From IMG/VR virus record IMGVR_UViG_2585427970_000001: 64,000 bases of DNA; one strand, 5' to 3'. Of the stretch, positions 51,816 to 57,074 are shown one piece after another; positions within the stretch are counted from its first letter, which is position 1, and each line of letters opens with the position of its first letter. The notes beneath the pieces were generated by a model. It was not told the DNA's origin. It saw only the letters and a program-made list of their open reading frames with translations, and did no database searches. This DNA is from a virus (taxonomy: Duplodnaviria; Heunggongvirae; Uroviricota; Caudoviricetes). The position numbers were made by a program, and so were the translations under genes.

Positions 51816-51961
51816 AGTCAGCCTGCCAGAAATAGATGATGGTGATTCTACCGCTAGTCATTTGTTGATTATTTAACTCAATAAAAGAAAATTATTAGTG
51901 CAATTTTGATTGTGAAATGTATCATTCTGCCCTTAAGTAGGTTCTTCACGAGGAAACAAAA

Positions 51962-52207
51962 TTGGCAGAACGTGTTGATGATGCAGAGCTGAGCATGAAT
52001 CAGTTAGAAGCTCTCAAAGACATGGCCATCGATAACATCAGAAAGCAGGCACAGGTCGTGAGCCAGGTATTTACAGGGAAGTGTCGTTACTGCAATGAAT
52101 CGATTGAATCAGGCATTTATTGTGACGCTGAATGTGCGCAATGGCACAGGGAAGAGCAGGCTGCAAAACAGCGTAAATATGGCATGCGACCGGCAGGATT
52201 TGACTGA
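51962..52207 (+). CDS. TraR/DksA-family C4 zinc-finger protein
   Basis: 81 aa; CRYCNESIESGIYCDAEC; TTG start with AGGAAA RBS. Confidence 0.55.
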   Translation: MAERVDDAELSMNQLEALKDMAIDNIRKQAQVVSQVFTGKCRYCNESIESGIYCDAECAQWHREEQAAKQRKYGMRPAGFD

Positions 52208-52209
52208 TT

Positions 52210-52788
52210 ATGTTGCGCTTTACTGAGGAAGAGTTTCAGGCTTTTAGTGAGCGTCGAAATAAGGGGCGGTCCAGGCCAAAAACCAAAAAGGATCCATTCT
52301 TATCGCTTGCGCCGGTAAAAGAAGTTTCTCCACATGCGAAGGCACTTGCAGCACTGGCAAAGACCCCCGACCTGCGCGACGGAAATTGCGAGCACTTCGA
52401 GCAGGTTTTCATTTTTGATTACTTCGAACGCAAGCACCCTGACATCTATGAGCTGTTGCATGCAACGCCTAACGGAGGGAAACGTTCAAAAGCAACCGCC
52501 GGGAAAATGAAGGCTGAAGGGCAGAAAAAAGGTTATCCGGACATGAGTCTCGATAAAGCATGCGGTATTTATCACGGCATGCGAATTGAGCTTAAAGAAC
52601 CAAATGGTAAAGCCCCGACGAAAGAGCAGATCGCCTGGATGCGCAGGCTTAGAGAGGAAGGTTACTACGTCGTTCTTGCGTATGGTGCAGAACAAGCGAT
52701 AACCGCCATCCTGGAATACATGAGCCTTAAAAAGGGTGAGACTATTGAGCATGTATTGAACGGTGACAAGTGGTTGTACGCTACGTGA
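52210..52788 (+). CDS. VRR-NUC domain nuclease-like protein
   Basis: 192 aa; ..HATPNGGKRS..GKMKAEG..GYPDM..ELKEPNGK..EQIAWM.. Confidence 0.5.
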   Translation: MLRFTEEEFQAFSERRNKGRSRPKTKKDPFLSLAPVKEVSPHAKALAALAKTPDLRDGNCEHFEQVFIFDYFERKHPDIYELLHATPNGGKRSKATAGKMKAEGQKKGYPDMSLDKACGIYHGMRIELKEPNGKAPTKEQIAWMRRLREEGYYVVLAYGAEQAITAILEYMSLKKGETIEHVLNGDKWLYAT

Positions 52789-52812
52789 AATAATAAATTA
52801 ATTAGTGCATGT

Positions 52813-53010
52813 GTGCTCTTTGATATAGCGCACATTAACATCGGGAGAATAATCGTGTCATCCAAGGCTAATTATGAATCGCTGGCATCGATCATGCCGC
52901 GTAATGAACAGGAAGCAGATGCTGTAGTGGACCCGGTAATCGCTGAAATGAATGCTCGCCTGGAGGCTGAATTTGCAGCTGAGAATGAACATACCACCCA
53001 GGGCGACTAG
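52813..53010 (+). CDS. Small hypothetical protein
   Basis: 65 aa ORF. Confidence 0.25.
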   Translation: MLFDIAHINIGRIIVSSKANYESLASIMPRNEQEADAVVDPVIAEMNARLEAEFAAENEHTTQGD

Positions 53011-53614
53011 GACTGTTTTTTGTGTCGGTAGCGGTCCGTCACTCACTCGTGAGGACTGTGCTGCTATAGAAAAAACTGGCTGTTCAATCATCGCGGTTAA
53101 CAATTCCTGGCAGATGTTCGATGACATTTATGCCTTATACGCCGGTGATTTGTCATGGTGGAAGCAATACGGATCCACCATACCGGGAGGGAGATTCCGC
53201 AAAGTGACAGCCAACCTGGCGGCGGCGAAATCATTTTCGTTGGAGTACAGGCGATATTGTGGACCGGCTGAAGGGGTAAATAGCGGCGCGCAGGCTATCA
53301 GTCTGGCTGCTGAATCAGGGGCTGAAGTAGTGGTATTAGTCGGCTATGACTGTTCTCTGCAAAACGGCCTTCATTGGCATGGCGCGCACCCTCAAGCCCT
53401 ACGGAATCCAACGCAGGTGTCTATTTCAAAATGGCAACAGCAGTTCCTGGATACCCGCAAAAAACACGCAGATTTACATATTTTGAATGCAAGTAGGAGC
53501 AGTGCAATTCAATGTTTCCCAAGAATAAATTTAGAGGCAGTGATCGCGTTATTATCGTCGGCAGTGGCCCAAGCGCCGCAAACTTTGTTGCGCCGCGCGG
53601 AGTGCCGATTATAG
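52985..53614 (+). CDS. Rossmann-like protein with GSGPS..IIAVN motifs (paralog 1)
   Basis: Track ORF 52952..53614; probable start MNIPP at 52985. Confidence 0.4.
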   Translation: MNIPPRATRTVFCVGSGPSLTREDCAAIEKTGCSIIAVNNSWQMFDDIYALYAGDLSWWKQYGSTIPGGRFRKVTANLAAAKSFSLEYRRYCGPAEGVNSGAQAISLAAESGAEVVVLVGYDCSLQNGLHWHGAHPQALRNPTQVSISKWQQQFLDTRKKHADLHILNASRSSAIQCFPRINLEAVIALLSSAVAQAPQTLLRRAECRL

Positions 53615-54812: not shown

Positions 54813-55510
54813 AGATTGCTTTAGTTCTTCGCTCTGGTGGTGACTATAACGCTTCCGATGTGCAGTGGCTGGTTAATCAACTGCCAAAAGACTATGAAAT
54901 TATTTGCCTGACAGACCTGAAGTGTTTACATGTACCTGGCGTCAAAGTTATCCCATTGATCAACCAGTGGCAAAAGTGCCGTGGCTGGTGGGCGAAAATC
55001 GAGTTGTTCCGACCGGATATAACCGATGATCTGTTCTATCTGGATTTGGACACGGTTATTGCCGGTGATATACGCCCAATCCTAGAGAATCCACCAACCA
55101 GCTTCACCATGCTTAGGGATTTTTACCATCCACAATATCGTGGCAGCGGTGCCCTGTGGATACCAAATAGTGTAAAAGCGCATATCTGGAGTGCATTCTG
55201 GCAAGATCCGGAAGGTTGGATTGCTCGTTGCGTTATTACTGAATGCTGGGGTGATCAGGGGTTTTTGCGGAAGGTTATGGGTGATGATACACCAGCATTT
55301 CAGGATCTGTATCCGGGATGGTTTGTAAGTTACAAGGCCGATGTTGTGGAACCTGGTTCGAAATATGCGAGCGCGCGTTACTCCAGGGGGAATGGGGCAT
55401 TACCAAAAGACTGCCGAATAATCTTTTTCCACGGCAAACCGCGACCTCGCGAAGTGTCAGAGGATTGGCTTCCCCTTATCAGCTCATTTTTTGAGCAAGA
55501 ATCAGAATAA
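54809..55510 (+). CDS. Hypothetical protein with DxD-like motif (possible nucleotide-sugar transferase)
   Basis: 233 aa; YLDLDTVI. Confidence 0.3.
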
Positions 55511-55511
55511 T

Positions 55512-55577
55512 ATTGCTCTAATAATTCCATATTTTTAAAGCGAGATGTACACTCATCACGTTTTTTATTAGAGCAAT
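55512..55577. promoter_or_regulatory. Pair of inverted C1-type operator-like sites flanking a promoter
   Basis: attgctctaataattcc (55512-55528) and reverse complement of 55561-55577 attgctctaataaaaaa. Confidence 0.4.
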
Positions 55578-55591
55578 CTACAAGGTGCACT

Positions 55592-55810
55592 ATGTGGCCA
55601 TTCCGACGGAAATATCACTACTGGCTGATCGCCTTTGTTACGCCGACCGGCGGTATTAGGCATGTCATCACCAGGTATCGCAACAAGAGACTCACCTTAG
55701 CCAGAATTTTACAGGCTGCCATAGGTGAGGGACTGGATACAAATTGCGTAGTCCTTCCACCTTCATACTTAGGAAAAATGACCGAAGCACAAGCTAATAC
55801 GGAACTTTGA
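55592..55810 (+). CDS. Small hypothetical protein
   Basis: 72 aa. Confidence 0.3.
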   Translation: MWPFRRKYHYWLIAFVTPTGGIRHVITRYRNKRLTLARILQAAIGEGLDTNCVVLPPSYLGKMTEAQANTEL

Positions 55811-55811
55811 A

Positions 55812-57074
55812 ATGAGCACTTCAGCACAAAACCAATCAATTGAAAATGTATCTATCCCTGACGTCCTGAATGCCGGTATCCCAGCCATTATCCAGAACAT
55901 CCGGGCCGCGCAACGCCGCGTTAGTTGTGATGACCTCACAGCGCGTTTTTTTGATAATGCGGTTCAGTCAGCGGAGATGCTTCACGCACAGCTTATTGAT
56001 GTTTATAACGCAGAAGCTGATAGCCATAACTCCCTGGTAGATGCAGCTGAAAATATGCAGTTGGATCTCGGTCTGAAGGGTAAAGAAATTGAAGAGCTTC
56101 AGCTGCAAATTGAACATTTGAAACGCCAGCAACAGGACGCGATCGACGATGCGACGCATGACGCCAACCAGCGTGCTGATAATGCCGAACGTATAAGCAT
56201 TGAGCTGGAAACAAAACTCAATGAAATGACCGCGATGGTTGAACTGCGAAACTCACAGATTTCAACGCTAAAATCTCAATATAAAGAGATCATGAAACTT
56301 GATCCTTTTAACCTTGAGAAACGCTATAACAAAGCCAAAAGTGAGCGACAGGAACTGCGTAAGCAGGTCGCTGACCTTAACCAACAGCTCAAAAAGACTA
56401 TTAAAGATGCAAGTGAGGCGCGCGTGGCATTTGCTAATAAAAAAGCAGAGGTTACCGCGCTGGCTAATGAGAATGCCAAATTTGCGACGCTCAAGAAGGA
56501 AATGTATGGCATTACTGAGCGACGTTTCCCTGCAAGCAAACTTCATCCGACGTTAGGGCAAATCTCCTTCTTCCCGCGCCTCCTGGCTTATGGGATCTCA
56601 TCGCCTAAAGAGTTCAATAACGAGCGTCCTTATATCGTTTCTAAGCTGGACTTTGCTTATCAGTTCTGCTGCGACATGGGCTATGCCATTGATATCCGAA
56701 TCAACGAATGGTTGATGCCAAACTTCCAGCCGTTGGCAATTTTCCGTGAGTTCCAGCCGGAAGGTTGGGTAGAGTTCTTCCATGAATTGATCTGTAAAGA
56801 GATGGAAAGCCGCCGCCCGGAGCTGGTCCGTCGAGTTGAGTGGGCGCAAGAGGTTATGTTGGCAGATGCAGAGCTGCCGTTTGAACCGGAATTCATTGAT
56901 GAACTGGCCAATAAAGGGCAGCATAGCCTATTTGATGTAGTTACCCGCCGTCATGAGCAGTTGGTTGTTGAATTGGGTTTAGAAGAAACTGCGGCAAGAA
57001 GACTTCTCGATGTTTGCTATGCACGTAGCGATGCATGGGAAAAAGAGAACGGCGGTACTATTTACGTTCGCTGA
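55812..57074 (+). CDS. Coiled-coil protein under putative C1 operator control
   Basis: 420 aa; long heptad region then C-terminal domain. Confidence 0.45.
   Translation: MSTSAQNQSIENVSIPDVLNAGIPAIIQNIRAAQRRVSCDDLTARFFDNAVQSAEMLHAQLIDVYNAEADSHNSLVDAAENMQLDLGLKGKEIEELQLQIEHLKRQQQDAIDDATHDANQRADNAERISIELETKLNEMTAMVELRNSQISTLKSQYKEIMKLDPFNLEKRYNKAKSERQELRKQVADLNQQLKKTIKDASEARVAFANKKAEVTALANENAKFATLKKEMYGITERRFPASKLHPTLGQISFFPRLLAYGISSPKEFNNERPYIVSKLDFAYQFCCDMGYAIDIRINEWLMPNFQPLAIFREFQPEGWVEFFHELICKEMESRRPELVRRVEWAQEVMLADAELPFEPEFIDELANKGQHSLFDVVTRRHEQLVVELGLEETAARRLLDVCYARSDAWEKENGGTIYVR

Follow-up and report, generated by a model that had tools for sequence, protein, structure and literature searches.

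Gene content of the locus

The 64,000-nt stretch of tailed-phage DNA analysed here (IMG/VR record IMGVR_UViG_2585427970_000001, hereafter the window) carries, at 51.0–57.3 kb, a run of plus-strand genes that is ~98% identical to positions 78.0–83.9 kb of bacteriophage P1. When window positions 51000-58000 were used as a megablast query, 18 P1-type phages, among them P1, P7, RCS47 and SJ46, covered 90% of the query at 97.5-98.6% identity (~98% across 6.3 kb), the P1-type match stopping at window 57277-57278. The P1 annotation was carried over from record AF234172, with the RefSeq gene names, by adding 47999 to the coordinates of the corresponding stretch of that record (L001). This gives nine genes, all of them intact and 0-6 residues off their P1 counterparts, PmgL and PmgR being identical to theirs. 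Gene order and the sequences of four operators are the same as in the pmgL–pmgS region of P1 (AF234172/NC_005856, annotation by Lobocka et al.). It is thus practically certain that we are dealing with the pmgL–pmgS block of a P1-type phage-plasmid under C1 control, a region which, operators included, is already known, since it has been in the P1 annotation since 2004. The nine genes are:

pmgL, 51962-52207, plus strand: 81-amino-acid (aa) predicted four-cysteine zinc-finger protein, CxxC...CxxxC
pmgM, 52210-52788, plus strand: predicted VRR-NUC (PD-(D/E)xK) nuclease
pmgN, 52855-53010, plus strand: 51 aa; GTG start with a GGGAGA ribosome-binding site; PHROG 2350
pmgO, 52952-53614, plus strand: predicted Maf/MptE/sialyltransferase-like Rossmann enzyme
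pmgP, 53512-54138, plus strand: predicted distant paralog of pmgO
ppp, 54120-54812, plus strand: predicted lambda-type Mn-dependent Ser/Thr protein phosphatase
pmgQ, 54809-55510, plus strand: predicted GT8-like (glycogenin/Gat1-like) GT-A glycosyltransferase, 233 aa
pmgR, 55592-55810, plus strand: identical to P1 PmgR; knockout phenotype in PMC9024508
pmgS, 55812-57074, plus strand: 420 aa; predicted coiled coil and C-terminal helix-hairpin-helix

An initial annotation of the window had listed seven of these genes (pmgL, pmgM, pmgO, pmgP, ppp, pmgQ and pmgS), which all exist and are intact, and had omitted the two small ones, pmgN (52855-53010) and pmgR (55592-55810). The alignment with the P1 pmg/ppp region that it proposed as a check gives ~98% identity.

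C1 operators and transcription units

Four operator sites, all intergenic and spread over three gaps, accompany the nine genes, together with late promoters and a terminator:

O26 (formerly Op82), ATTGCACTAATAATTTT, 51888-51904, minus strand: 24.5 bits, second best in the window; identical to P1
Oppp (formerly Op83), CATGCACTAATTAATTT, 52795-52811, minus strand: 19.5 bits; in the pmgM|pmgN gap
OpmgRa (formerly Op86a), ATTGCTCTAATAATTCC, 55512-55528, plus strand: 21.5 bits; overlaps the predicted -35 element of PpmgR
OpmgRb (formerly Op86b), ATTGCTCTAATAAAAAA, 55561-55577, minus strand: 20.5 bits; inverted with respect to Op86a, 32 nt apart
LP26 (minus strand) and LPpmgL (plus strand), 51845-51873: divergent Lpa-dependent late promoters, P1 features at L001 3846-3874, placed by coordinate transfer only
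Intrinsic terminator, 57094-57123, plus strand: 11-bp stem with 6 G-C pairs and a T run; closes the pmgR-pmgS unit

The bit scores derive from a position weight matrix built from 16 of the 20 annotated P1 operators that we gathered, namely those lying outside this region. On this matrix all four sites fit the 17-bp asymmetric C1 operator class with 19.5–24.5 bits, to be compared with 12.6 bits for the best non-operator of the 64-kb window and with 17.5 bits, the 95th percentile of the highest scores reached in 200 Markov-simulated 64-kb sequences; two more sites of the window, the c4 and repL operators, rank at the top with them. A search with the consensus ATTGCTCTAATAAATTT, allowing up to three mismatches, retrieved five sites in the window against 0.36 expected, a number reached in none of 100 shuffles, and three of the five fall in this region (51888-51904, minus strand; 55512-55528, plus strand; 55561-55577, minus strand). 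Op83, with four mismatches to the consensus, is outside the reach of that search. The initial annotation had recognized the inverted pair at 55512-55577, which corresponds to the annotated Op86a and Op86b, as well as a site at 51889-51904 that it took for a weaker one and that is actually the strongest of the four (24.5 bits); it had missed the fourth, Op83 (52795-52811). It had also allowed that such sites might score below background with a proper matrix, whereas all four stand above it, and its description of the genes as repressor-controlled agrees with the P1 annotation, which asserts C1 binding to these very sites (Op82/O26, Op83/Oppp, Op86a and Op86b). Note that the window spans P1 coordinates of about 24-84 kb, so that c1 itself, at 93-94 kb, lies beyond it.

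A Pantoea P1-like element (L090), whose proteins are 46-72% identical, displays operator-like inverted pairs in the pmgM|pmgN and pmgQ|pmgR gaps, the latter again 32 nt apart, like Op86a and Op86b. Because the placement is conserved in so divergent an element, this arrangement provides independent support for operator function. Compared to P1, the late-promoter region of the window is nearly identical, the 146-nt intergenic stretch having one changed base (51869), and the pmgM|pmgN spacer carries six substitutions, none of them inside the operator.

P1 uses C1 as the repressor of its early lytic promoters and Lpa as the activator of its late ones. O26 overlaps the predicted sigma-70 promoters P1pmgL and P2pmgL, and in the P1 annotation LPpmgL stands ahead of pmgL, arranged divergently with the gene 26 promoter. 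The block would consist of three transcription units, each with a 17-bp asymmetric C1 operator or operator pair at its head: pmgL-pmgM with Op82, pmgN-pmgO-pmgP-ppp-pmgQ with Op83, and pmgR-pmgS with the inverted Op86a/b. In a lysogen, C1 sitting on the operators would block the overlapping sigma-70 promoters; once C1 is inactivated, the three units would be transcribed, LPpmgL would add Lpa-dependent late transcription, and the strong terminator past pmgS would end the block. Judged from the sequence, the block is best read as an accessory one that is repressed by C1 and also transcribed late.

Among the 16 operators of the matrix is Omat, whose annotated strand in record AF234172 (L003 2628-2645) reads TATATTTATTAGTGCATG; the operator sequence, CATGCACTAATAAATAT, is on the opposite strand alone, and the strand of Omat appears to be inverted in the P1 record.

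PmgO and PmgP, predicted paralogs with a Maf/MptE/sialyltransferase-like fold

PmgO and PmgP both carry a GSGPS..IIAVN motif, the only stretch of similarity that BLAST sees (E 0.003). Comparison of their family profiles with hhalign, run with a fusion protein (P0171, see below) left out, aligned 166 columns with a probability of 97.9% (E 5.8e-13). In addition, MAFFT alignment of the combined set placed the PmgO relatives onto the PmgP half of the fusion, which supports paralogy. The profiles argue firmly for true, if distant, paralogs, as the initial annotation had surmised from the shared motif in two tandem genes overlapping by about 100 bp; the overlap measures 103 nt, and pmgP, read in the -1 frame, has an AGGAG ribosome-binding site of its own (53496-53500).

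The fusion, P0171, is a single chain of 376 aa encoded at L006 8001-9131 in an unrelated metagenomic phage, where genes for a PmgQ homolog and for another DxD protein come next. Because such a natural fusion exists, cooperation between PmgO and PmgP is suggested, and the two proteins probably act as a pair.

The structures of PmgO and PmgP were modelled separately. Thiamine pyrophosphokinases and animal sialyltransferases came lower in the ranking of structural matches, Maf ranked first in Foldseek as well, and the modelled fold can be described firmly as Maf/MptE/sialyltransferase (GT42)-like. The Pfam model PF01973 (MptE-like/Maf) gives 23.4 and 20.8 bits for PmgO and PmgP, below its cut-off of 34.6, with similar sub-threshold matches in 27 of 28 PmgO relatives and in all 48 PmgP relatives. 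Residues 4-25 and 119-154 of Cst-II align, weakly and at the motif level only, with the N-terminal GSGPS region and with NSG...GYD, respectively. Sequence similarity to Maf (5mu5) and to the GT42 enzymes Cst-I and Cst-II is otherwise insignificant (E about 1). PmgO and PmgP are single domains of ~200 aa, whereas the Maf flagellin glycosyltransferase 5mu5 has 632 aa, and the HWHGxH motif kept throughout the PmgO family is its own, setting PmgO apart from Maf and from Cst-I/Cst-II.

The conserved core of PmgO extends from about aa 20 to 203. Its first 20 residues are unconserved and modelled as disordered, and the true pmgO start may be the ATG at 52985. The model is poor before residue 20 and beyond ~205, and PmgO relatives stop ~15-30 residues sooner or have unrelated tails; for both reasons, neither end of PmgO is likely to be functional protein.

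A canonical -1 slippery heptamer, A_AAT_TTA, occurs in the pmgO frame at 53527-53533, just past the conserved end of PmgO. Programmed -1 frameshifting from PmgO into PmgP was considered and rejected: no slippery heptamer is conserved, and the Citrobacter locus has a 94-nt overlap without any. Frameshifting is also disfavoured by the overlap length, which varies from 7 to 103 nt across loci, by the -1 frame being the default one for overlapping genes, and by the ribosome-binding site of pmgP. The heptamer is probably there by chance.

PmgQ, a predicted GT8-like transferase

The DxD-motif protein of the initial annotation is PmgQ, whose D79-L-D81 is invariant in a profile of 40 relatives. Against the PDB, this profile retrieves Gat1 (6mw5, E 7.8e-9), glycogenin (2e-5) and GlyE (5gvv, 2.6e-5) with their DxD motifs aligned, the matches to GT8 structures spanning about 130-170 residues; PmgQ also matches PHROG 1962 ('glycosyltransferase'). 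PmgQ itself has no Pfam match, the Glyco_transf_8 model being matched, weakly, by 10 of the 40 relatives. Altogether, the profile evidence makes a GT8-like DxD transferase resembling the glycogenin/Gat1/GlyE branch likely, although a short one (233 aa).

Distribution of pmgO, pmgP and pmgQ outside P1

The nine block proteins were searched by tblastn against 19 loci and then against four more. A scan of viral contigs gave only P1-like elements at 98-100% identity, the diversity described below coming from a genome scan and contig look-ups. Among the tblastn loci, pmgL, pmgM, pmgN, ppp, pmgR and pmgS are restricted to P1-type elements. By contrast, pmgO, pmgP and pmgQ are found together, and without ppp, in Citrobacter, Zhongshania, Commensalibacter, Brevundimonas and Sinomicrobium elements, the carriers including a Citrobacter rodentium prophage and the metagenomic phage in which pmgO and pmgP are fused; elsewhere PmgQ occurs with PmgO only, or alone. 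All the hosts found are Gram-negative.

PmgQ homologs, alone or accompanied by PmgO/PmgP, are encoded in at least eight unrelated lineages of phages either with capsid, MuF or terminase genes on one side and head-tail connector genes on the other, or beside the lysis cassette:

L007, L006 and L099: homologs beside the lysis cassette and terminase
L098, L106 and L107: order capsid, set, head-tail connectors
L103 and L109: neighbour a MuF-like head protein
L100 and L108: neighbour a head-tail adaptor or head-closure gene

Six of the loci (L006, L098, L099, L100, L104 and L106) also have further sugar transferase or methyltransferase genes next to the homologs. The new finding is that all or some of pmgO, pmgP and pmgQ turn up, unaccompanied by ppp, in unrelated phages, as a rule within clusters of head, packaging or lysis genes.

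The set is also present in five Pseudescherichia chromosomes (L092-L096), where homologs of pmgO, pmgP and pmgQ are interleaved with adhesin genes (e.g. L092 357-9873), the partners being a 1178-aa inverse autotransporter of the intimin/invasin-like type and a 999-aa protein with Big_1 and RCC1 repeats (an Ig-like repeat gene). This arrangement hints at adhesin glycosylation. A side observation is that it parallels the adhesin cargo adjoining the module in the window (see below).

A candidate protein glycosylation set

The overall best explanation of these data, to which we assign a probability of about 0.6, is that the C1-controlled block contains a sugar-transferase set whose probable target is a protein, possibly one of the virion. 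PmgO, PmgP and PmgQ being glycosyltransferases is likely in its own right; that the target of the set is a protein, or a virion component, remains tentative. The set would comprise the paralogous Maf/sialyltransferase-like pair PmgO/PmgP and the GT8-like DxD transferase PmgQ, and would act in the cytoplasm, assembling a short glycan on a protein substrate. In the phage, this substrate would most likely be a head-associated virion protein, whose modification would be dispensable for laboratory plaques. The nearest relatives of known structure have proteins, or glycans linked to proteins, as substrates: flagellin for Maf, and substrates of this kind for glycogenin, Gat1 and GlyE. A cytoplasmic protein-glycosylation module is favoured because of these substrates and because of the head-gene and adhesin-gene neighbourhoods. 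The absence of a plaque phenotype in P1 knockouts (PMC9024508; PMC10695390) fits an accessory role.

Several points weigh against this explanation. Glycosylation is mentioned neither in two recent P1 structure papers nor in the virion proteome paper. The capsid proteins adjoining the homologs have no obvious Ser/Thr-rich tails. The Pfam matches of PmgO, PmgP and PmgQ are all under the curated cut-offs. Late-operon junctions are frequent landing sites for unrelated 'moron' genes. As to the control of the block, the annotated sigma-70 promoters, which are predictions in the P1 record, were not recovered by a strict sigma-70 scan. Finally, the fold of PmgO and PmgP is common to pyrophosphokinases, and modification of the envelope lipopolysaccharide (LPS) is a serious rival.

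If the shared fold were to reflect a shared function, PmgO and PmgP would be pyrophosphokinases like MptE or thiamine pyrophosphokinase, acting on a small-molecule substrate. We consider this very improbable, given the alignment, weak as it is, of the GSGPS and NSG...GYD regions with Cst-II and the persistent company of a GT8-like transferase, extra sugar transferases and methyltransferases.

The envelope alternative holds that PmgO, PmgP and PmgQ modify a cell-envelope glycan, for instance the LPS core, the P1 receptor, resulting in receptor masking, in superinfection exclusion or in progeny being kept off debris. The GT8 family includes LPS outer-core hexosyltransferases, a membership that speaks for this alternative; yet none of the 22 PDB matches of the PmgQ profile (E <= 10) is named as an LPS or lipo-oligosaccharide enzyme, while glycogenin, Gat1 and GlyE were found. 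A faint match to WaaZ, a KdoIII transferase, in the precomputed Pfam list of P0171 points the same way; it was reproduced in none of 76 family members, and kinship with WaaZ was rejected. That all hosts are Gram-negative fits a CMP-Kdo donor, but the host phyla differ in their core structures. The PHROG category of PmgQ is 'moron, auxiliary metabolic gene and host takeover'. The set lies amid head genes, and its expected late expression would leave little time for the remodelling of exported LPS. On balance we regard envelope modification as unlikely.

The protein-glycosylation set proposed here has a counterpart in mycobacteriophages, the virions of which are, according to what Freeman et al. 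reportedly described in 2023, glycosylated by phage-encoded glycosyltransferases; that work is cited in PMC12691614 and PMC11256854. There too, the sugar transferases are cytoplasmic and phage-encoded, are dispensable for plaques, and are proposed or shown to decorate capsid or tail proteins. The mycobacteriophage system differs in relying on other enzyme families and in operating in Gram-positive actinobacterial hosts, and its glycosylation has been demonstrated experimentally, whereas that of the P1 set is inferred. A bolder proposition, which we put forward as speculative and more doubtful than not, is that there is a widespread and previously unrecognised glycosylation of virion proteins, probably head-associated ones, by PmgQ, often together with PmgO/PmgP, in phages of Gram-negative bacteria including P1, that PmgO/PmgP add an ulosonic acid (e.g. 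Kdo) from a CMP-sugar, and that some bacteria have borrowed the module for their adhesins. If true, virion glycosylation would extend from mycobacteriophages to phages of Gram-negative bacteria and would have a bearing on the immune recognition of therapeutic phages. In any case, genes whose sole label for twenty years has been 'putative morphogenetic function' now come with a testable lead, in a standard laboratory phage for which knockouts exist (PMC9024508).

Other products of the block

Among the other products, Ppp aligns end to end with the lambda protein phosphatase (PDB 1g5b, E 1.3e-93), which it resembles over its full length, matches Pfam Metallophos (2e-15, 58.1 bits against a cut-off of 21.5) and contains the metal-binding motifs GDLHG, GDLIDRG and GNHE; the prediction of a lambda-type Ser/Thr phosphatase, already made in the initial annotation, is firm. 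The same annotation considered it the only firm one, which understates the case, since the VRR-NUC assignment of PmgM and the paralogy of PmgO and PmgP are firm as well. PmgM matches the VRR-NUC structure 4qbl (E 1.1e-16) in an alignment that spans GYPDM...RIELK, and PHROG 5702 ('Holliday junction resolvase', 5.9e-27); its Pfam VRR_NUC score of 21.4 bits is just under the cut-off of 23.8. It shares the core of stand-alone viral and bacterial VRR-NUC resolvases such as 4qbl, with ~75 aa extra at its N-terminus. From these matches, PmgM is firmly predicted to be a VRR-NUC nuclease, as had been proposed, and is probably a junction resolvase.

The case of PmgL is different. Its four cysteines (C41xxC44...C54xxxC58, by inspection) are as the initial annotation had them, but the TraR/DksA label is poorly supported: among the databases only PHROG 54 ('DksA-like zinc-finger', E 1.6e-12) speaks for it, there being no Pfam zf-dskA_traR match at E <= 0.1 (only a sub-threshold treble-clef domain), no DksA or TraR chain among the PDB matches and no BLAST alignment to a TraR sequence. 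The N-terminal E3xxD6xA8, also seen by inspection, resembles the DxxDxA tip motif of DksA/TraR. The cysteines are more closely spaced than those of TraR, and the E3xxD6xA8 tip would be lost if translation began at an alternative start codon that the P1 record annotates. Altogether, a TraR/DksA identity of PmgL is weakly supported.

PmgS, recognized from the outset as a 420-aa coiled-coil protein, has its coiled coil at ~aa 60-235, with coiled-coil-type matches to SMC/Rad50, and PADLOC defence models gave nothing but coiled-coil noise on it. At ~aa 350-405 lies a helix-hairpin-helix domain: the family profile matches the Rad51 N-terminal (HhH)2 domain in the PDB (E 1.5e-6) and is also similar to the C-terminal domain of the RNA polymerase alpha subunit, and Pfam HHH_5 is matched by 15 of 30 PmgS relatives, the window protein alone falling below Pfam significance. 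PmgS thus probably binds DNA. The family is rare (75 representatives in 1.84 billion proteins), and the assignment of a C-terminal helix-hairpin-helix to it is new here.

As regards the two small genes, pmgN belongs to PHROG 2350, a family labelled as of unknown function, and is essential by CRISPR interference yet dispensable by deletion (PMC10695390). pmgR is a morphogenesis gene with a knockout phenotype (PMC9024508), and PmgR is an essential head-completion protein; the rest of the block is dispensable for plaque formation (PMC10695390; PMC9024508).

The initial annotation had suggested a host-takeover or modification module. Modification is plausible for the sugar-transferase-like pmgO/pmgP/pmgQ. 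Host takeover would mean that PmgL reprograms RNA polymerase like TraR, that Ppp dephosphorylates host proteins and that PmgM processes DNA. C1 control, which implies early expression, would suit such a module, as would the PHROG 54 match of PmgL, its DksA/TraR-like tip and the predicted activity of Ppp as a phosphatase. However, the Pfam, PDB and BLAST comparisons of PmgL give no match to DksA or TraR, pmgR serves morphogenesis, the P1 annotation puts a late promoter ahead of pmgL, and pmgL, pmgM and ppp are confined to the P1 lineage, the conserved core being the transferase set. Host takeover is therefore an improbable function for the module; as a description of the whole block it is at odds with the Lpa late promoter, the dispensable genes and the homologs among head and packaging genes.

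Downstream cargo and other departures from P1

Beyond pmgS and its terminator, P1 pap, pmgT and onward are swapped in the window (57278-64000) for adhesin cargo, which contains:

FaeA/PapI-like regulator, 57619-57849, minus strand
PapB-like regulator, 58056-58559
giant open reading frame, from 58865 and running past the window end, at least 1712 aa: ESPR type-V-secretion signal

The giant reading frame is predicted to encode an autotransporter adhesin because it carries an ESPR type-V-secretion signal. This cargo is shared with one PLSDB plasmid only, the IncY plasmid pAPEC201602 from avian E. coli.

The window departs from P1 elsewhere too. At 41467-42776, ~1.3 kb stands in place of the uhr-hrdC-dmt segment of P1 (P1 64581-69422), and the Odmt and Oban operators are absent along with it. 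An extra 1.3 kb is present in the ddrB/ddrA area, and the sim and par regions have diverged from those of P1. Besides 41467-42776, these departures involve 4352-5688, 23885-25262 and 36056-38468.

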